This document shows positions 42,665 through 62,900 of a DNA stretch of 64,000 nt, in pieces. A model generated the notes under the pieces. That model was not told where the DNA came from and searched no databases. It was given only the letters and a program-made list of their open reading frames with translations. The first letter of the stretch is position 1. Each line of letters begins with the position of its first letter. Location: positions 12,832 through 76,831 of the forward strand of contig JBJDZG010000004.1 in NCBI GenBank assembly GCA_051867875.1, written 5' to 3'. The stretch comes from Eubacteriales bacterium (GTDB taxonomy: Bacteria > Bacillota > Clostridia > Oscillospirales > CAG-272). Position numbers and translations under genes: made by a program.

Positions 42665-43756
42665 TTATTCAAAAGAATTAAAGTCTATAATCGATACGTC
42701 AGGAATTCTTTTTTTTATCACTTTCATAGCAATGTTTGAATTATCAATTCCAATATACTTTCTACCGTTATTTTTGGCAGCCAATAGAGTAGTTCCGCTT
42801 CCTGCAAAACAATCCAATACAATACTATCACTTTTTGAAGATTGCTTTACTATTAAATCAAGCATATCAAGATTTTTTTGAGTCGGATACAATGGATATT
42901 GCGGGTCTTTGAAATTCCAAATATCTTGGATTTTTTTACCCTTATGTTCATCGGCATATTTGATTATTCTAGGATTTCCTTTTGATGACCATTCAATAAG
43001 TCCGATTGAATCTAATTTGTCAAATTCCGTCGGATTTGTTCTCCAGTGCCTGCCCTCAGGTGGATTCATATTTCTCCACGGCATCCCTGTAGGGCTTGTA
43101 GAACTTGATTCTCCGGGAGCATGCAAAGGAATAGTAGTGTATCTTCTGCCGTTTTTATCTATTTTTGTGAATCTTTTGGCCAATTCTTCATCATCGCACT
43201 TAATTTTTATGTTATTCCATATGTTTTTTGATGATTTAGTATACAACAAAATCATATCTTTATGATTGCCATAAGCGCGCCTGTCAAAATTTTTAGGATT
43301 TGATTTTATTCTTGTAATATCGTTCTTAAAAGATGATTCGCCAAAAATTTCATCTAAAATAACCTTAAAATAATGTCCCATTTTCAAATCAATATGAACA
43401 TATAGACTTCCTTCCTCAGAAAGCAATTCATATATCAGGACAAAACATCTGTACATAAAATTAATAAATTCATCTTTTGTCATTTCGTCCGAATATGCAA
43501 TTTCACCATTCTTGGGACGACTGATTGTGCTTGCTCTTGTATCAGTAACAGAAAACTCTTGATTGGTATTGAATGGTGGGTCAATATATACCAAATCTAT
43601 TTTTCCTCTATATTCATTCAACATTGAGGACATTACTTCCAAGTTATCACCCTCAACTACAAAAGAGTGATCAATGAAAGGAAGACTTTTTTCGGCATTC
43701 TTAAACCTCAGAACTATATCTTCTTTGGATTCTTTTCCATCAAATATTATTTTCAT
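42665..43756 (-). CDS. Site-specific DNA methyltransferase, N6-adenine/N4-cytosine, beta class (N6_N4_Mtase family)
   Basis: Motif IV DPPF (YIDPPFNT, aa 58-64) is N-terminal to SAM motif I FAGSGTT (aa 317-323), which is the beta-class order. LDEIFG follows, as in Mod-like enzymes. AT-rich codon usage. Confidence 0.88.
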   Translation of the reverse strand: MKIIFDGKESKEDIVLRFKNAEKSLPFIDHSFVVEGDNLEVMSSMLNEYRGKIDLVYIDPPFNTNQEFSVTDTRASTISRPKNGEIAYSDEMTKDEFINFMYRCFVLIYELLSEEGSLYVHIDLKMGHYFKVILDEIFGESSFKNDITRIKSNPKNFDRRAYGNHKDMILLYTKSSKNIWNNIKIKCDDEELAKRFTKIDKNGRRYTTIPLHAPGESSSTSPTGMPWRNMNPPEGRHWRTNPTEFDKLDSIGLIEWSSKGNPRIIKYADEHKGKKIQDIWNFKDPQYPLYPTQKNLDMLDLIVKQSSKSDSIVLDCFAGSGTTLLAAKNNGRKYIGIDNSNIAMKVIKKRIPDVSIIDFNSFE

Positions 43757-43766
43757 CTTCTTTGCC

Positions 43767-44567
43767 TTAAATTGAGTACAAAAATTCTCTTAAAACTAAG
43801 CTGGATAGGATAATTTGTTCATCATTTTCAATAAGATGCTTATGCATTTTGTTACCTGAATTAATGTACAACACACCATCACAAATAGCTATTTTTATTA
43901 CTTCAACATTCAATCTGTTTGGAAGCAACGGTAATGTTATAGTTGAAATTGCGTCTTCAAACTGCCTGTCTTGATGGCCTCCGAAATCAGTTATAAACTT
44001 TGCTTCCCCAATAACATATTTATTGTTACATCTTGCTATAAAATCCAGTCCTTTGCTATGATTATATCCCAAGTATTCCTCAGCAAATTTCTTCATTTCC
44101 AAATCGGAGATATTCAATACAGCATTTTCTTCAGTAGATAAAAAATCGATTGCATTATGATAGATAGGAAGTCCCAAAACTCCACTTTCAATCCATCTTT
44201 TAAATAACGGACCTATTTGTCTGTTGGTTTCTTTAGGCTCTGTACATTTTTCAAAAATTGAATCTAATCCCATTTCATAAAGATTGCCTGCCAGTCTGTT
44301 AATCGTTTCAGGATTTCTTTCGATTGATGACGGATCTCTCTTTAAGTATGCTACATACGAATCCTTTATAGGAAATAAATCCAAATACAATAAATTCCGT
44401 ACCAAATCATCATTGTTCCGACGTTCAAATGAAGTTTTTATCCTACTCCATTTATCCCAACTTATTTCTCTTCTCAGATTTGGAGACATTGGATATACTC
44501 TAAACAAAGAATCAAGATAGTTTCTCTGGTTTGCAAATTCTACACTGATTTGTGTCCAATAATTCAT
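43767..44567 (-). CDS. Putative type II restriction endonuclease (PD-(D/E)xK fold candidate), specificity unknown
   Basis: 266 aa, sited 10 nt upstream of and co-directional with the methyltransferase gene. It has the D175-x12-E188-A-K190 motif (GLDFIARCNNKYVIGEAKF) expected of PD-(D/E)xK nucleases. I cannot name a family. Confidence 0.6.
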   Translation of the reverse strand: MNYWTQISVEFANQRNYLDSLFRVYPMSPNLRREISWDKWSRIKTSFERRNNDDLVRNLLYLDLFPIKDSYVAYLKRDPSSIERNPETINRLAGNLYEMGLDSIFEKCTEPKETNRQIGPLFKRWIESGVLGLPIYHNAIDFLSTEENAVLNISDLEMKKFAEEYLGYNHSKGLDFIARCNNKYVIGEAKFITDFGGHQDRQFEDAISTITLPLLPNRLNVEVIKIAICDGVLYINSGNKMHKHLIENDEQIILSSLVLREFLYSI

Positions 44568-51721: not shown

Positions 51722-51907
51722 TTATTTTGCGTTAAGAGAATTTTCGTAAGACTCTACCATCTTCTTAACCATCTGTCCGCCGATGGAGCCTGCCTGACGG
51801 CTTGTGAGGTCGCCGTTGTAACCGCCGTTGTTGAGTGTTACGCCAACTTCGTTAGCAGCCTGCATCTTGAACTGCTCAAGAGCCTTTTTAGATGACTTGT
51901 TTGCCAT
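51722..51907 (-). CDS. Alpha/beta-type small acid-soluble spore protein
   Basis: 61 aa. The pattern ...ALEQFKMQAANEVGV...LTSRQAGSIGGQMVKKMV is the conserved SASP alpha/beta signature (two blocks around the germination-protease site). Confidence 0.9.
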   Translation of the reverse strand: MANKSSKKALEQFKMQAANEVGVTLNNGGYNGDLTSRQAGSIGGQMVKKMVESYENSLNAK

Positions 51908-55121: not shown

Positions 55122-57446
55122 TTAACCGCCGAAAAGTTCCGAAAAGAATTTTCCGATAGAATTGAAAATCGCTTTGAAGAATTCTCCGATAAGCTCCCAA
55201 AGACTCATTTCCTCAAGGGGCTTTTCAGGAGCAGGCTCATCGGGATTTTCCGGATTATCGGGATTTGAAGGCACATCGGGCTCGGTTGTCTTTTCTGTAT
55301 GAACTGCCGTTATTTCAACGCTCATCGTCGATTTCGTAGCCCACGGAGAGAAAGAAACGTAGCAAGCGGAAGAATCCGTAAAATGACTCATTCCTTCAAG
55401 TGCGCTCGCGGGTATTGTAAGTACGTCAGTTCCGAGAGGAGATATAACGCTCATATTAATACCGCCGTTTTCAGCCGACTCGAATTTAATATCGAACGGA
55501 ATAGACCCCGTATTGCCGTACACGAGATAATCGCTTCTGCCGATAGAAATTCCCGAACCTGTGCTTACACTTCCGCTGGCGAAATCGATATTGATAAGCA
55601 ATCCCTCGTTTGAAAGCCACTTATCTTTATACGTGTTGGAAAGCAAAATTCCGAGCACCTTGTTTTCGGACTGTATATTGAGATTCGTAAATCCGAGATG
55701 CAAGCCGTCAAGGTCAAACGTGGAATTGAAACCGAGGAAGTAGTTTTTCGTAGCCTCGTTCCAGTTCAGTTTGACGCCGATATTCGTGCTGTCCTCTATC
55801 CAGCCTTTTGAGGTCATGGGAGAGATACTGAACGTATCGCTCTTTGAGGGAGCAAATTCGTCCGAGCACTTTGTAATGAAATATTTGTTGTAATATTCCC
55901 TTTCGAGATTTTCAAATTCGTCGAGCTTATCCATAAGATTCTTAATCTTATAGTTGAGCTTGTTAATCTCTTTACGCATCGTCGTAATCAGCTCAAGGTC
56001 GGACTCCGTAAGCTCTTTTTCCATAAGCTCGTCTATTCTTGCGTCAAATCTCGTTGCGATGATTGCGTTTTCCTCTGTCATATCAACAAACTTCTGCGAA
56101 AGCTCGGTGCATACGTAGAAGCAGTCATACGCCCTTACCTTGACCGTATAAGGATACTTAAAATCGCCCGTAAACGTCGTTGAGTAGCTCTTCGGCATAT
56201 TCGTAAGCCCCGGGTCGTTGTAGAAAGGCGTTACTATGGTCTTTGATGCAATTACCGTACCGTTCTCATTCTCTACCAAAACCTCATAGTAAAAGACCAT
56301 ATCGTCGTCCACAGCGGACTTGAAGTCGATTCTGAGCTCAGTGCTTGAAACTTCGATTACCTCTATTCCCGCGGGGAATTGAGGAGCACGGTTGTTTGCA
56401 AGTCTTGTTTCCTTTGAGTAGCGTGTAAGAGATGAACCGTCGGACTTGTATGCGTCGATATACCAAGGGTCCTTTATAACCGTATCTTTTGCAATATCTA
56501 TTCTGGTGATGCGGATATTGTTTTCCTTATCCACCTCAACTATCATTCCCTGCGAGAAAGAACGGCGGTTTTCGGGCTTAATAACGTCAAATTCAATGTC
56601 GGAAGCACTGCCCGAATTAATCTGCGTATACGTGCTCTGATTGATATTCGTTTCAAGATTAAGACCGTAATGGGTGTGTCCGCTGAAAAGAATTACCTGC
56701 GGATATTCTTTGAGCACGCTGTCAAGCTGAACCGATGCTCCCCAATCTCCCGTTCCGCTGATATCGTTGGACATACTGCCGTATACGGTGTCCTTTGCGG
56801 GACTGTGGCTGGATACGAATACGTAAGCGTTGGGATTTTCGCCTACTATTCTGTCGAGCGTATTTCTGAGCCACGTCTCAGTCTCTGCGGAAAGAGTGTT
56901 GTAGTTGGGCATATACGTTTCGATATCAACGCTTATAAAGTGATAGCCGTTTATCTCAACGTGGCGGTTGCCCTTGTAGATGCTCTTCATATCCTTATCG
57001 AAAAGATACATATCGGAGCCGTAAGCGTCAACGAATTCCGCTCTCGTCATACAACCAGACCAGTATACGTCGTGGTTGCCGTTTGTAATAATTACGGGTA
57101 CTTTCGTTACGTCGAAAGCCTCTTTCACTATCGAAGCAAACAACTCTGCCTGCTCCTTTTTACCGTCCTGAGTCTGGTCGCCGCAAAAAAGCACTGCGTC
57201 AATGCCGTTCTTGGCATACTTTTTGATAGTTGCAAGAGTATTTCGGAGAATATTTGCATTGTCGCCAAATCCTACGTGCGTATCGGAAAGGTTGGCAAAC
57301 GTAAATACTATCTCGTTTTCGTTAAATGCGTAATCGGGAGTTGACACGGCAGCCACCTCACTCTCTGCACCTGCAAACATGGGAATAACTCCGAAGCACA
57401 TAACAACAGCCAAAGTCAAACTGAGTATTTTGTTAAATTTAGTCAT
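55122..57446 (-). CDS. Secreted multidomain protein with five parts: metallophosphoesterase, Fn3-like domain, helical segment, uncharacterised beta-rich domain, and acidic/Pro linker with C-terminal amphipathic FF tail
   Basis: Sec signal (ILSLTLAVVMCFGVIPMFAGA|ES). Calcineurin-like motifs are DTHVG, GDQTQDG, GNHD, SSHSP and SGHTH (aa ~46-262). The C-terminus is PDVPSNPDNPENPDEPAPEKPLEE followed by MSLWELIGEFFKAIFNSIGKFFSELFGG. Confidence 0.8.
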   Translation of the reverse strand: MTKFNKILSLTLAVVMCFGVIPMFAGAESEVAAVSTPDYAFNENEIVFTFANLSDTHVGFGDNANILRNTLATIKKYAKNGIDAVLFCGDQTQDGKKEQAELFASIVKEAFDVTKVPVIITNGNHDVYWSGCMTRAEFVDAYGSDMYLFDKDMKSIYKGNRHVEINGYHFISVDIETYMPNYNTLSAETETWLRNTLDRIVGENPNAYVFVSSHSPAKDTVYGSMSNDISGTGDWGASVQLDSVLKEYPQVILFSGHTHYGLNLETNINQSTYTQINSGSASDIEFDVIKPENRRSFSQGMIVEVDKENNIRITRIDIAKDTVIKDPWYIDAYKSDGSSLTRYSKETRLANNRAPQFPAGIEVIEVSSTELRIDFKSAVDDDMVFYYEVLVENENGTVIASKTIVTPFYNDPGLTNMPKSYSTTFTGDFKYPYTVKVRAYDCFYVCTELSQKFVDMTEENAIIATRFDARIDELMEKELTESDLELITTMRKEINKLNYKIKNLMDKLDEFENLEREYYNKYFITKCSDEFAPSKSDTFSISPMTSKGWIEDSTNIGVKLNWNEATKNYFLGFNSTFDLDGLHLGFTNLNIQSENKVLGILLSNTYKDKWLSNEGLLINIDFASGSVSTGSGISIGRSDYLVYGNTGSIPFDIKFESAENGGINMSVISPLGTDVLTIPASALEGMSHFTDSSACYVSFSPWATKSTMSVEITAVHTEKTTEPDVPSNPDNPENPDEPAPEKPLEEMSLWELIGEFFKAIFNSIGKFFSELFGG

Positions 57447-57457
57447 AGGGACCTCCT

Positions 57458-59809
57458 TTAATTATATTTATAGTATACTCCCGCAGAGTCTATCTGAGCG
57501 GCAACGTTATACGTTCCCGTAACCTCAAATCCGAAATTCATTCCTCCGATGTAGATATCTTCCCATGAGGTGTCGCCGAGATAGCCTCTTTCCTTTGCGG
57601 TATTGAAGGCGGCCTTAGCGGCATCGAGAAGGTGGAAATCCACCGTTCTGTATTCGTTTACTACGGGACATTTGCCATTCGGATGAACGAGGGCGGAAGA
57701 GGGCTGATATATAAATGCGTGAGTGGCATCTTCCTTTCCTGCATCCTCTGCGGCATATCCGCCGAAAGGAGCACCGGAAATGCGGTTGTCCCAGAGAGTA
57801 ATTCCAAACCAGACGTAGCTTCCGTAATCCTTGTGTCCTACCGTTCTGTTTTGAAGTGTGATATACCAAACGAGCTGTGCACAGTGCTTATTGGAATCCG
57901 CCGAGCTGCCCATACAGTCCTCAAATTTGGTTATCTCATAGCTCATATTCATTACGAGGTCTTGGAGCTCACTTACGTGAACGAGATTCCCGCCGAAATC
58001 CTGCGATATAAGAGTATGAGGCCAGCTCTCGCCGTCCAGGCGGGGATGGTCGTATTCCACCTGTGCATTAAGCTCCATGTATATAGAGCCCTTCGTGCTG
58101 TCAATGGTCAGAATTTTGCCGGGCACATCGACTCCGTTTATCTTCTGACCTGCGGATACATAAGTATAAGCATTTCCGCCGTTGAAATAAGTTCTTTCAG
58201 CATAATCGTAAATGTCATATTTTGAACCCCACTGAGGGAATACCCAAGATGGCTCATCGGTGGCGTTGACTCCCGCTATGTTGCCGGCAACGCTGCCGTC
58301 GGGCTTCAAAACGGTAAATCCATTTTTGAAAAATGGGTCATTAAAAAGCGCCGTATAGCCGTTTTCGGTGTATTTCTCGTATGCGGTTTCAGAGTCTGTC
58401 ACGGGTGTATCCGGCACGGAAGACTCGCAGTTAAAATTTATGAGAGTTGCAAGAAGATTCATAGCGTAAACACGCGCAAAGAAATCGTTGGGGTGGTTTA
58501 CGTTATTGCTCGACATTTCGGTAAAGTATTTGCCCGAATCAAGAAGATCCTGATGTATAGCACCGATATCGACGACGGACACGTTCTCATAATTCTTTGA
58601 TATCTTTTTGAGATATTCTGTATATTCCGTCTGATTTTTGGACTGATTCTTTGCCATCGGGTTTGCAAGCATTGTTCCGAGAAGAATAATCTCGCAGTCC
58701 GGATTCTGCTTGCGAACGGTACTTATCATACTCATAATATTATTGCAGAAAGTATCTATGGAAAGACCGAGTGTAGCGTCGTTCATACCGAATCCGATAA
58801 TGGCAACATCGGGAACGTATCCCTTGAGCTCGCCCGAAACGAACTGCGTTGCAAGACCGGGCTTCTGTACCTGCTGTCCTGCTATCCAGCCCGTACCGCC
58901 GCCGACTCCGTTGGCAGAAGTCCAACCGCCGACACTGGTATTTTTGAGATTAACCGTTGTACCGTAGTAGGAAGAAAGGCTCTGGGCGAACATCTGGGGC
59001 CACGTGGGAAGTCCCGGATTTATACCGAGCACGGAAGATGAGTTCGCGCCCGTGGATATACTGTCTCCGAATACGAGCACGTTTACTTCTTCTTTATTCT
59101 GCAACTTTGTCAAAGTATTTTTAAGCGTCGTATCGCCGAGATACTCGGGCACCGTTCCCGCCCATACGTTCTCAGCGTGAGTATACGTAACGCAGAGCTG
59201 CATCTGTACTATCTGGTAGCCCTCTGTAAAAGGCAGGCAAAGACCGTCGGTCTTCGAGGGAATATCGGACTGCAAAGTAAGTCCGGGAAATTTCTGCTCG
59301 CCTGTAAGCATCTTATCGGTAACATAGGGCATATTCGTCATAAATTCGTCCATCTCAAGTATGTCGTTATGAACGATACTTCCCTTCGCTACGATATATC
59401 CGTTTTCATAAATGAAGTCCACGCCTTCAGTAAAGGTTTTTATTTCAGAGCCGTTATTTTCGTGGAAATACCAAGTAACAGACTCGATTTTTTCTGCTTC
59501 AAAAAGGAGTTTGGCACGGGGTGCCTCAATAATATTGCCTTCGTCGTCGGTCTTGGCGACGAGCATTACGCTCTCGTCGTACATTTTGTCGCCAACCCAG
59601 AAGGGCTTCGCATATTCTTTAACTTTCATATCGTCTTCCGGAGGATTTTCATTACCGCCGGGATTTGTAGTAGTTGTTGTGGTTGATGTGGTTTTATCTG
59701 TGCCGCCGTTAAACTCTTCCCAAAACTCGTCCCAGGCTGTGCAGGAAACAAGTGGGAGCATAACGGCAAATGTAAGCAACAATGCGAGAATTTTTTTGAT
59801 ATTTTTCAA
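57458..59809 (-). CDS. Lipoprotein: beta-rich N-domain, SGNH/GDSL hydrolase domain and ~300-aa uncharacterised C-terminal domain
   Basis: Lipobox LPLVSC|T, then a Thr-rich linker. SGNH blocks are VLVFGDSIST (block I), GFGMNDA (block III) and NHPND (block V-like). The C-terminal domain (aa ~478-783) is paralogous to the ORF at 63401..64000. Confidence 0.8.
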   Translation of the reverse strand: MKNIKKILALLLTFAVMLPLVSCTAWDEFWEEFNGGTDKTTSTTTTTTNPGGNENPPEDDMKVKEYAKPFWVGDKMYDESVMLVAKTDDEGNIIEAPRAKLLFEAEKIESVTWYFHENNGSEIKTFTEGVDFIYENGYIVAKGSIVHNDILEMDEFMTNMPYVTDKMLTGEQKFPGLTLQSDIPSKTDGLCLPFTEGYQIVQMQLCVTYTHAENVWAGTVPEYLGDTTLKNTLTKLQNKEEVNVLVFGDSISTGANSSSVLGINPGLPTWPQMFAQSLSSYYGTTVNLKNTSVGGWTSANGVGGGTGWIAGQQVQKPGLATQFVSGELKGYVPDVAIIGFGMNDATLGLSIDTFCNNIMSMISTVRKQNPDCEIILLGTMLANPMAKNQSKNQTEYTEYLKKISKNYENVSVVDIGAIHQDLLDSGKYFTEMSSNNVNHPNDFFARVYAMNLLATLINFNCESSVPDTPVTDSETAYEKYTENGYTALFNDPFFKNGFTVLKPDGSVAGNIAGVNATDEPSWVFPQWGSKYDIYDYAERTYFNGGNAYTYVSAGQKINGVDVPGKILTIDSTKGSIYMELNAQVEYDHPRLDGESWPHTLISQDFGGNLVHVSELQDLVMNMSYEITKFEDCMGSSADSNKHCAQLVWYITLQNRTVGHKDYGSYVWFGITLWDNRISGAPFGGYAAEDAGKEDATHAFIYQPSSALVHPNGKCPVVNEYRTVDFHLLDAAKAAFNTAKERGYLGDTSWEDIYIGGMNFGFEVTGTYNVAAQIDSAGVYYKYN

Positions 59810-59992: not shown

Positions 59993-62900
59993 TCAGCCGG
60001 AAATTTTACCGATAAGACCTACGAAGAAGTTTCTGATAGCGTCAACGATGTTTCTGAAGAAACGAGCCAACTGCTGAATGAAAGTAAGCTCTTCTTCACC
60101 GGGCTCGTCACCGGGCTCGTCGCCGGGTTCGTCGCCGGGTTCGTCGCCGGGCTGGTCAGGGTCATCTACCTTAACGTCTTCACCGCATACGTCGCACTTG
60201 CCGTCTTTATCTGCGTCAACGTGCTCGGTGCACTCAGGTTTGTCTTCGGGCATACCGAATTCAACACCGTTAGCACTTACGAGTGTAAGAATGTTGGGAT
60301 ATGACTTGTCGTCTGCAAATGAACCCATTGAGAAGTATACTTCATCGGGAACTGCATGACCGTTATTAGTAAGAGCCTCAGTCGTGAGCACTATCTCAGC
60401 CTCGTTTACTCTGATAACGTAAGCCCAGTATGTAGCGTCCTCTACGAAGCTGTAATACTCTTCGTACTTAACGGAAATAGTAATTGTACCGCCGTCAAGA
60501 GGTGTAGCGATAGCGCTGTTGGCAAGAGGTACGTCCGTGTAGTTCATAATCTGAACGTTGGATTCTGTGGGATAGAGCCAGATTATGATGGAAATACCGT
60601 CGCTCATCGACTTATAGGAGTCGGGAGATGCCAAGAAGTTGAAGCAAAGGTTATTTGCGCTGGAGCCGTTATTGTAGTATGCTGCGCTCGTAAGCTCGAT
60701 AACTATCTCTGCTCCGGATTTAAGGTTAAGAGGCTTGTTATAGTTGAGACGTGCGGGGAATTCAACCTTGGACTCAACTGCAAGACCTCTGTTGTTCCAT
60801 TCAACAAGCGGAATGTTCGTTGAATTCATGTAGTAGAATACATTTGCGGAAATGTCAAGTTCAAGGTCGGCAAGCTCTGCAGCTATCTCTGCATTCTCTT
60901 CCATGAGGTAATCAAGCTTAATGCCCTTGAACTTATTGCGTACTGTCTTGAACTCGTCAAGAACTGTGTACTGCTTTGTAAGGAGGTCGGAAACCTCTTT
61001 AATCTGTGCGCGAACGTATGCCTCGCAAGCGTCTTTAAGTGTATTGTAACCTGCTACGTAACGGCTGTAAAGCTCGCCGTCTTCCTCTGTAATTGTAACG
61101 TAAGTTGCGATTTCTGCATAAGCTGCCTTAGCGTCGTCAAGATTGGGCTTGATTGTAAGGTCAGCTTTAAGCTTTTCTTCCATAGCCGCGATATAGCTTT
61201 CTTTAAGCTGAGGAAGAACTACTGTTTCGATATTTACTACTGCTTCATCACATACTGCGATAGCGCTTTCAAGAGCTGCTTTGTCTTCTTCATTGAGAAC
61301 GGTTGTAATCTTTACATAAGCCGTTGTTGATGTGTATGCTTCTCTGTAAGCCTTAACCTCAACAAGACCGTCAACGATAGAGGGGTCATTCGCATCGAGA
61401 GCCGCAATCTTTGATTCGTATGTTGTTACCCAGAGAAGAGCGATGCAGTAATCGTGTGCATAATCAAGACCTGCAATAGCTGTGTCAATCTCTGCCTTAG
61501 CGTCGTCGCTGAGCATGGAAGCTCTGCTTGCATACTCTGCCTTTGCATCATTTGTAAGAGCAAGAGCAGCTGCAAGGGATTCATTATTAAGCGTTGTTGC
61601 GTCTGCAACAAGTGCATCGTAAGCAGCCTTAGCTGCATCAAGTTTGTCTGTTACTGCCTTCTTAACGATGAGAACGATATCTTCGTTAGCTGCAAGTTCA
61701 GCGTCAACTGCTGCCATTAAAAGATTAAGTTCAGCAAGCTCTCTTGAACGAAGTCCGTTAAGAGAAGCAAGTGCTTCGGATTTAGCTGCCATAGCTGCAT
61801 CGTAGGAAGCTGCGTCCGTAATGGAATCTGCTGCTGTTTTATAAGCCTCAACCTTAGCCTGCGCGCCTGTTACGGCATCGCTTGCAAGGTAAGCTCTGTA
61901 ATTATCGTCAACGATTTTGTACTCTGCTACGCAAGCGGGGTTTGCTCCGGAGGGGAAACCTGCTGCGATAACGTAGCACTCACCGTTTTCGTTGAGCATA
62001 TCTGCTACCGTTGCTTTGGGAAGATATACCGTGCAGCTCTTTTCATCTGCATTGTAGTTGGCGTTGTTGCCCCACATTGAGCTATCCGTCATCGTAATCT
62101 TTACAGAGTAGAAATCATCATTGTAGGACTCAAACTTAATAGTCCAACCCATTGTTGCGGCCTGACTGCAAACCATGGAGCCTGCTACGCCGAAGCCGTT
62201 ATTCGCAGAAGAAACTTCGGGAGCTGTGTAAACAACGGATGAGGAATTGTAATTGTGATTTGTACCGAAGTGAAGTCTTGCCTGTCCGGAATAGAGTTCA
62301 TTCCAATATGTGATGGAGAAAGGAGAATCGTCTCCAAAATATGCGCCGTTTATACCTGAGAAAATAATGCCGGCGCAGTCGCCTTTGTTGGAAGTCGAGC
62401 GGAAGCTGATTTCCAGTCCGTCGAATTTTACGAGATGCTTATAGTAAGAACGAACGCCCCAACCGGAAAGATTGGAAACTTCTGTGTATCCGTTCTCTGC
62501 AAAATTCATCACGGGAGAACCTGCATAAGCTGCCCAGTCACTGTCTGATGCGCCTACGATACCGGGAACTTCGGGAGTCTCGGGCTCGGGGTCAACGGGA
62601 GTTTCGGGCTCTTCAGCACCTGCAGCTTCTGTAACTCTGATGCTGTAATTGGGGCTCGTGAGACCCGAAGCGGAAACATAGAGCTTGCCCTCAGAGTCAA
62701 GAGCACTTGCAAATGTGGATTTAAGCATATAAACGGTGCAGGAGTGTCCGCCGCCCTCTTCGTCAGCGTAGTTTGCGTTGTTGCCCCAAAGGAGATTATC
62801 CTGTGCTACCGTAAATTTAACTGCGTATGTGTTTTCGTCATAAGAATTTATCTCAATCTTGATGTCGGCATCTGTTACGGTATTAAGTACCATAGAGCCT

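Follow-up and report, generated by a model that had tools for sequence, protein, structure and literature searches.

What does a short, phenylalanine-rich C-terminus do when it closes two secreted proteins that are otherwise unrelated? The question is raised by a window of 64,000 nucleotides from a Eubacteriales genome (contig JBJDZG010000004.1, positions 12,832 to 76,831), in which the gene for a secreted protein of 1122 residues and that for a secreted metallophosphoesterase of 774 residues end in the same tail. This tail is a single Phe-rich amphipathic alpha-helix of the form FF-x9-FF; it is conserved, and in proteins with signal peptides it forms the very C-terminus, preceded by a disordered linker. 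It is met again in numerous surface proteins that are not related to each other, and in orthologues it is swapped with a transmembrane anchor. The reading that we favour, and hold to be moderately probable, is that the tail serves as a self-contained, enzyme-independent in-plane membrane anchor that would tether surface proteins through the cell wall.

A helical tail common to two unrelated proteins

When the whole 1122- and 774-residue proteins were compared by BLASTP, the single significant high-scoring segment pair covered the last 55 residues (35% identity, E=7e-7). A hidden Markov model (HMM) of the tail, run over all six-frame open reading frames (ORFs) of the window, matched only these two, at 55.2 bits for the tail of the 1122-residue protein (copy 2) and 57.5 bits for that of the metallophosphoesterase (copy 1), the next best ORF scoring 6 bits. 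The initial annotation, which had proposed a shared C-terminal module with an FF-x9-FF amphipathic tail and had paired copy 2, behind its acidic (GDEP)n linker, with copy 1, is borne out by translation and by these searches; its count of 7 identical residues in 23 aligned positions becomes 8 in 27 when recounted by hand. It had also described the regions N-terminal to the linkers as more diverged, which was mistaken: they belong to unrelated proteins, lectin-like beta-sandwiches in the one and a metallophosphoesterase in the other. The 1122-residue ORF ends in (GDEP)n-EE-LTFIQQLARFFRNIVDAIRNFFVGLIGKISG (as a longer stretch, CTEHVDADKDGKCDVCGEDVKVDDPDQPGDEPGDEPGDEPGDEPGEEELTFIQQLARFFRNIVDAIRNFFVGLIGKISG), with PGDEPGDEPGDEPGDEPGEEE directly preceding the tail, and the 774-residue ORF ends in PDNPENPDEPAPEKPLEEMSLWELIGEFFKAIFNSIGKFFSELFGG. 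A stop codon stands directly behind copy 2, so that the helix forms the extreme C-terminus.

In the tail, hydrophobic residues occupy positions i, i+1, i+4, i+7, i+8, i+11, i+12, i+15, i+18, i+19, i+22 and i+23, and K, R, D or N returns every 3-4 residues. Taken over its full length, copy 2 has a hydrophobic moment (muH) of 0.57 and copy 1 one of 0.60, values reached by 3 and 1 of 20000 shuffles respectively, and the moment has its sole peak at 100 degrees per residue in both, an amphipathic periodicity far beyond chance. AlphaFold2 (AF2), supplied with orthologue alignments, placed a helix at residues 1094-1121 of the 1122-residue protein and at residues 749-772 of the metallophosphoesterase, in both cases with a linker whose predicted local distance difference test score (pLDDT) is below 50 between the helix and a globular body modelled with confidence; in the latter protein this linker spans residues 719-742. 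A transmembrane helix was considered and rejected, since charged or polar residues recur at every turn; the transmembrane segment of the homologue P0083 has a muH of 0.24 versus 0.57 for copy 2. The net charge is +3 for copy 2 and -1 for copy 1. The same character is found in 52 further tails, which have a median muH of 0.655 (z=4.5), 27% aromatic residues and a net charge from -4 to +7 (mean +1.2), the 30 residues ahead of them carrying a mean charge of -6.2. Among 96 aligned tails the positions of the hydrophobic face hold a hydrophobic residue in 99-100% of cases, and those of the polar face vary strongly (entropy 2.4-3.0 bits), per-position values that are partly circular because this broad set was picked with the tail HMM.

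The 1122-residue protein is built, in order, from a predicted Sec signal peptide, two homologous domains of about 200 residues (38% identity to each other, E=1e-34), an Ala-rich helical stalk, a ConA/legume-lectin-like beta-sandwich, a Cys/His motif between this last globular domain and the linker, an acidic linker whose length varies between orthologues in the alignment, and the tail. The resemblance of the last globular domain to legume lectins comes from Foldseek (E about 2e-6); a Pfam scan of the protein returned no family. Signal peptides, here and below, were assigned by eye or by regular expression, and those of the two tail proteins in the window, MKRRILALLLLIPMMFSVFGQALVFA and MTKFNKILSLTLAVVMCFGVIPMFAGA, each followed by E, are typical of Sec export. 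The mature 1122-residue chain, tail included, is therefore predicted to lie outside the cytoplasmic membrane.

Conservation and exchange with a transmembrane signal

All 33 full-length homologues of the 1122-residue protein among the matches listed (56-94% identity) retain the tail, in the form EELSFIQKLARFFRxIxDAIKNFFxGLFGKxx, and so do all 39 listed homologues of the 774-residue protein at 55% identity or more, here in several subtypes. Mean pairwise identity per column in the 1122-residue family is 0.69 for the body, 0.73 for the Cys motif, 0.28 for the linker and 0.58 for the tail; Nei-Gojobori dN/dS over seven loci is 0.12, 0.09, 0.42 and 0.25 in the same order. The 774-residue family, which has no Cys motif, gave identities of 0.77 for the body, 0.30 for the linker and 0.52 for the tail, with pN/pS (dS being saturated) of 0.24, 0.56 and 0.32. 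Synonymous sites are near saturation in these comparisons. With a dN/dS between those of linker and body, the tail is under purifying selection, clearly more constrained than the linker and less so than the folded domains. The selection on the tail itself that had been proposed is thus upheld by its retention and by its dN/dS relative to the linker; the accompanying claim that the tail is conserved above its neighbouring sequence holds for the linker in both families and fails for the body (identity 0.69-0.82).

The length variants of the tail stay in helical phase. P0045 has an insertion of four residues, tails of the P0056 type are shorter, and the tail of the L002 orthologue, FFRNIFDTVGNFFKNIFSTVSNFFANLFGKK (FFRNIFDTVGN-FFKNIFSTVSN-FFANLFGKK), carries one extra unit of 11 residues, which shows that hendecad units are duplicated as the tail evolves. 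Concerted evolution of the two tails within a genome was also considered and rejected, each family keeping its own type, basic and ending in GLFGKK versus acidic and ending in ELFGG, in six loci (L001, L002, L003, L005, L007 and L009). An exception is P0004 of the 1122-residue family, whose tail SLFQKIWQAIVNFFQAIGKFFRSIFGGNKE is less like those of its own family than like the QRIWQAIVNFF tails of the metallophosphoesterases P0056, P0074, P0076 and P0077, and this likeness suggests an occasional exchange of tails between genes.

A different kind of exchange was found in homologues of both families. The more distant metallophosphoesterase homologues P0081-P0098 (37-48% identity) share the architecture and the acidic linker, and end in GCGS, about 20 hydrophobic residues and KKRK. 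The 1122-residue family shows the same in L004 and L008 (65-66% identity) and in L010 (38%), where the Cys motif and the linker are retained and the protein ends in KKGCKGCGSVIGLGAFAVIATIGLAGVSFLKKKD or similar. A rough neighbour-joining tree built on the body places L004 and L008 within the clade that bears the tail, with L010 as outgroup, which implies at least two exchanges of the anchor. Both families share the anchor type at a given locus, with the helix in 6 of the 6 tail-bearing loci listed above and the transmembrane type in L010. The presence of a transmembrane-type anchor at the position of the tail in orthologues argues that the tail holds the place of a C-terminal anchor or sorting signal and that the two are evolutionarily interchangeable. 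The initial annotation had taken orthologues with an unrelated C-terminus as grounds for dismissing the tail; such orthologues exist (L004, L008, L010, P0081-P0098), yet they do not speak against it, because the GCG, transmembrane and KKK anchor at the same position explains its role.

The alternative C-terminal signal of these Clostridia is alike in both families: an acidic linker, (K)KGCG[SAG], a transmembrane segment of about 20 residues and KKK or KKRK. No NCBIfam sorting-domain model reached its cut-off on these GCG-TM-KKK tails (TM, transmembrane), except for LPXTG_anchor at 16.9 bits, which matched the transmembrane part only; MYXO-CTERM (GC_trans_RRR) scored 11.6 bits. Possibly, GCG-TM-KKK is a sorting signal of Clostridia that contains Cys and is as yet undescribed.

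The exact coincidence in position with a tripartite signal also fits another view, namely that the tail is a recognition tag, read by a sorting or processing enzyme in the manner of LPXTG, PEP-CTERM and MYXO-CTERM or bound by a docking receptor in dockerin-cohesin style. The near-invariance of I..FF..LFG across unrelated passengers agrees with it, and the single anchor type per locus in both families suggests a genome-level system. However, the tail has neither a hydrophobic transmembrane segment nor a basic cluster, its polar face is hypervariable, and no conserved small-residue cleavage motif is found at the junction, which looks instead like helix capping (an acidic N-terminus and a Gly/Lys C-terminus). 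No NCBIfam sorting domain (PEP-, GlyGly-, MYXO-, PGF-, Firmicu-CTERM and others) matched the two whole proteins or the isolated tails at E<=1, and no candidate enzyme is seen in the annotated part of the window (39.5-64 kb). In metagenome contigs scanned for the DNA pattern of FFxxIxxxIxxFFxxLFG, 120 loci were retrieved, 34 of which pass the tail HMM (the remainder being unrelated) and 31 of these 34 ORFs end within 8 residues of the stop codon; none of the loci has two tail genes or a recurrent, obvious conserved neighbour. A recognition tag is for these reasons considered unlikely, and the in-plane anchor remains the reading that we carry forward.

Distribution of the tail and its setting in the window

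A tail profile of 36 positions, built from 44 tails, was searched against 1.84 billion cluster representatives and matched 201 of them at E<=1e-3; the best 150 of the 201 were examined and 148 were new. At least 75 representatives have a single tail match that ends within 6 residues of the C-terminus, in proteins of 32-1753 residues, and 38 of the 49 longer ones among them have a signal peptide by a crude test. The Pfam families found in them are the starch-binding X25 (8) and CBM26 (7), Ig-like surface domains, BspA leucine-rich repeat (LRR), cohesin, SH3_3, LamG, thioester domain and Big_2, a repertoire typical of surface proteins. Only two names came out of the tail clusters looked up, 'starch-binding protein [Clostridia bacterium]' and, for another, 'hypothetical protein [Firmicutes bacterium]'; all ten genome loci belong to metagenome-assembled genomes (MAGs) labelled Clostridia, Eubacteriales, 'Lachnospiraceae' or 'Oscillospiraceae', from faecal, sheep-rectum and Hadza samples where a source is named. 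Searches of Pfam, NCBIfam, PDB and the literature returned no description of the tail module, the literature offering analogues only (PBP5, Erns, 11-mer helices and tape measure repeats), and the isolated tails on their own had no meaningful match in Pfam or NCBIfam. A homologue search with the tail alignment found five short proteins only and missed all known orthologues, and hence carries no information on distribution.

Of 52 other proteins that end in the tail, 35% have a CxxC[GDE] motif no more than 60 residues ahead of it. These motifs, of the form H...C-x(1-2)-C-[GDE], resemble the Cys/His motif of the 1122-residue protein and stand before linker and tail; some match zf-C2H2-like Pfam models, and in P0030 the motif is duplicated. 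The motif is possibly a small knuckle that binds metal and accompanies the tail from protein to protein.

The tail motif also occurs as stand-alone ORFs of 32-38 residues, for example MEALWEQIVAFFESIWASIVGFFGGLFGGNDEE (P0149, P0165, P0169, P0171, P0198, P0204, L048 1643-1789 and L098 418-537). They have no signal peptide and could be a small membrane-active peptide or an artefact of gene calling.

LL-37 is freed from the C-terminal end of hCAP18, and a comparable fate, in which the tail is a pro-peptide cleaved off to act as a free antimicrobial or cytolytic peptide, has in its favour these stand-alone ORFs, the net charge of copy 2 and the best PDB match of the tail profile, which is the membrane-active helix LL-37 itself (weak, E=0.0096). 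Against it, the consistently positive net charge of antimicrobial peptides is not found in the tails, no conserved protease site is present, the tail sits on dozens of unrelated large surface proteins, and a transmembrane anchor substitutes for it in orthologues. We regard the released peptide as very improbable.

In the window (Table 1), a GDSL esterase of 783 residues with a Cys-containing, lipoprotein-like signal peptide and without a tail lies between the two tail genes, and a shorter ORF upstream of the 1122-residue gene is a paralogue of the C-terminal domain of about 170 residues of this esterase (29% identity, E=2e-21). The stretch from 55 to 64 kb forms a cluster of secreted proteins adjoining GH65 and HAD (beta-phosphoglucomutase-like) genes; the neighbours of the tail genes are thus GH65, HAD, GDSL and alaS, not phage genes. 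A scan for promoters and terminators around the end of the 1122-residue gene found nothing. Further away are a restriction-modification pair and a gene for an alpha/beta-type small acid-soluble spore protein (SASP), and from the latter the organism is taken to be an endospore-forming Firmicute.

Table 1. Positions of the features discussed, in window coordinates unless a locus is named
Feature	Position	Strand	Basis or remark
Gene of the 1122/1118-residue secreted protein	59993..63361	-	ORF list; 1122 residues from TTG
ATG start of the same ORF	63347..63349	-	gives 1118 residues (MKRRIL...)
Predicted Sec signal peptide MKRRILALLLLIPMMFSVFGQALVFA	63272..63349	-	read from sequence; conserved in orthologues
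Cys/His motif C-x2-H-x8-C-x2-C, PECTEHVDADKDGKCDVCGEDVK (CTEHVDADKDGKCDVCG)	60170..60238	-	orthologue identity 0.73
Acidic Pro/Gly-rich linker VDDPDQPGDEPGDEPGDEPGDEPGEE	60092..60169	-	AF2 pLDDT <50, predicted disordered
Tail copy 2, residues 1091-1122, last 32 codons, ELTFIQQLARFFRNIVDAIRNFFVGLIGKISG	59996..60091	-	translation
AF2 helix within tail copy 2	59999..60082	-	pLDDT about 62
Stop codon behind tail copy 2	59993..59995	-	translation
Gene of the 774-residue secreted metallophosphoesterase	55122..57446	-	PF00149 Metallophos, E=6.7e-17
Acidic/Pro-rich linker of the 774-residue protein, EKTTEPDVPSNPDNPENPDEPAPEKPLEE	55209..55295	-	AF2 pLDDT <50
Tail copy 1, C-terminus of the 774-residue protein, MSLWELIGEFFKAIFNSIGKFFSELFGG	55125..55208	-	translation, BLASTP
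783-residue GDSL esterase	57458..59809	-
Paralogue of GDSL esterase C-terminal domain	63401..63919	-
Alpha/beta-type SASP gene	51722..51907	-	PF00269, E=1e-25
Tsp45I-type type II restriction enzyme gene and N6/N4 DNA methylase gene	42665..44567	-
L002 orthologue with extra 11-residue unit	L002 10175-13399
GCG-TM-KKK gene	L004 9992-13468
GCG-TM-KKK gene	L008 9989-13504
GCG-TM-KKK genes	L010 9989-13420 and 15783-18143

The proposed in-plane anchor and comparable systems

The in-plane anchor would operate as follows. The protein would be exported by Sec, so that the entire mature chain comes to lie on the outer side of the cytoplasmic membrane; some 28 residues at the C-terminus would fold into one amphipathic alpha-helix, whose Phe/Ile/Leu face would insert in the outer leaflet so that the helix lies in the plane of the membrane; the disordered, acidic, Pro-rich linker would act as a stalk across the peptidoglycan, and the lectin-like or enzymatic passenger would be displayed on the cell surface. 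Display on Gram-positive surfaces is usually ascribed to sortase signals, lipoproteins, transmembrane anchors and wall-binding repeats. If true, our proposal would add to these routes an unannotated anchor that requires no enzyme. The tail would then mark, in Clostridia of gut and rumen that have not been cultured, a set of surface proteins (starch-binding, lectin-like, LRR/Ig adhesin-like and enzymatic) that annotation pipelines currently read as 'secreted' or 'hypothetical'. Its profile would improve the prediction of localisation in these MAGs, and the tail itself, short and portable as it is, might be used to display other proteins on the surface. Because the swap with a transmembrane signal that contains Cys has happened repeatedly, it would offer a natural experiment in anchor exchange.

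Several points weigh against this proposal. That the tail binds lipid, that it stays on the protein uncleaved and that the passenger is exposed at the surface is what we infer, and it is for this reason that the anchor is held at moderate probability; we likewise infer the monoderm envelope from taxonomy (Clostridia MAGs) and from the SASP gene. The confidence of the AF2 helices is moderate (pLDDT 59-72). Tails are often neutral or acidic, some at -4, which disfavours electrostatic attraction to anionic bacterial membranes. In the 96 tails some residues are near-invariant (I24 94%, F27 92%, F28 98%, L31 96%, F32 93%; figures inflated by the choice of the set with the HMM), identities that exceed what generic lipid binding needs and could point to a protein partner. 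Finally, the tail profile also matches the W/F repeats, 11 residues long, of phage tape measure proteins; these repeats are coiled-coil elements and do not anchor proteins in membranes.

This last point opens the comparison with known systems. Tape measure proteins carry W/F with an 11-residue period according to Belcaid et al. (PMC3271669), and their repeats (PF05017) resemble the tail in a unit of the type FFxxI(W/F)xxIxxFF, with aromatics 11 apart, so that the tail profile retrieves many of them. Proteins with multi-copy internal repeats FFxGIWxxIxxFF... were strongly matched (P0117-P0119, P0131, P0144, P0147, P0162, P0185 and about 60 further representatives), and PHROGs labels them phage tail length tape measure proteins. 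They differ from the proteins studied here in that the repeat stands in many tandem internal copies of a virion protein made in the cytoplasm, whereas the tail is a single terminal helix of about 2.5 units on a Sec-exported cellular protein. PF05017 itself does not match the window tails at E<=10, and the one match above the cut-off of 15 bits, at 16.6, is that of a stand-alone peptide from elsewhere. The likeness of the two units may reflect either homology or convergence.

This cross-match, together with the 11-residue spacing of FF-x9-FF, the aromatic period of the tape measure proteins and the peptide above the Pfam cut-off, is what would favour an oligomerisation element, in which the Phe stripe packs as a coiled coil or helical bundle, in the way proposed for the tape measure repeats, and makes surface proteins multivalent. 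Oligomerisation alone leaves unexplained both the replacement by a transmembrane anchor in orthologues and the strict extreme C-terminal place behind a linker fit to span the wall; the window tails lack the PF05017 match, and the helix runs to only about 25 residues. We find this reading quite improbable. A broader proposal, in which the tail could be the signature of an unrecognised sorting or docking system of gut Clostridia with a dedicated partner, alternating with GCG-TM-KKK, and its aromatic unit of 11 residues could have a common origin with the phage tape measure repeat unit, has, taken as a whole, a slim chance in our estimation.

The tripartite sorting signals (LPXTG/sortase, MYXO-CTERM 'GC_trans_RRR', PEP-CTERM and GlyGly-CTERM) offer a second comparison. 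They share with the tail the C-terminal place behind a low-complexity linker on surface proteins with a signal peptide, and the tail is swapped in orthologues for GCG, a transmembrane segment and KKK. The tail differs from them in lacking a transmembrane segment and a basic cluster, and in being amphipathic and not uniformly hydrophobic. No LPXTG-like pentapeptide occurs in the last 60 residues, TIGR01167 does not match at E<=1, and the uninterrupted hydrophobic segment with a basic cluster that goes with LPXTG is not found in the tail.

Physically, the tail resembles helices that adsorb at a lipid interface through a long, straight hydrophobic stripe (PMC4536213, PMC3937272, PMC6164224), such as the in-plane helix anchor of pestivirus Erns (PMC4536213), LL-37 and the 11-mer repeat helices of perilipins and alpha-synuclein. 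These come from unrelated organisms and have unrelated sequences, and the likeness is physicochemical only.

The last comparison is with the penicillin-binding proteins (PBPs). In Escherichia coli, PBP5 is fixed to the inner membrane, on its outer side, by an amphipathic helix at the C-terminus (PMC2909392). PBP5, PBP6 and PBP4 are Sec-exported, have such a helix as their very C-terminus and attach to the cytoplasmic membrane without an enzyme (PMC2909392), a mode of attachment that is proposed here for the tail; the helices of PBPs and tail together span roughly 18-28 residues in length. Both window proteins have, like PBP5, a signal peptide (read from the sequence) and an extreme C-terminal helix of high muH. 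The moment of the tail is comparable to or above that of the PBP5 anchor in a comparison that also took in the sequences of MinD, magainin and melittin. The two anchors have no sequence relationship; the tail helix is longer, it is far richer in Phe, with its FF pairs, and a long, acidic, disordered linker stands ahead of it. Additionally, the PBP anchor belongs to one enzyme family, whereas the tail is a mobile module of many unrelated surface proteins of Bacillota. The tail is an undescribed and widely shared sequence module, a probable anchor of a known kind and not a categorically new mechanism.

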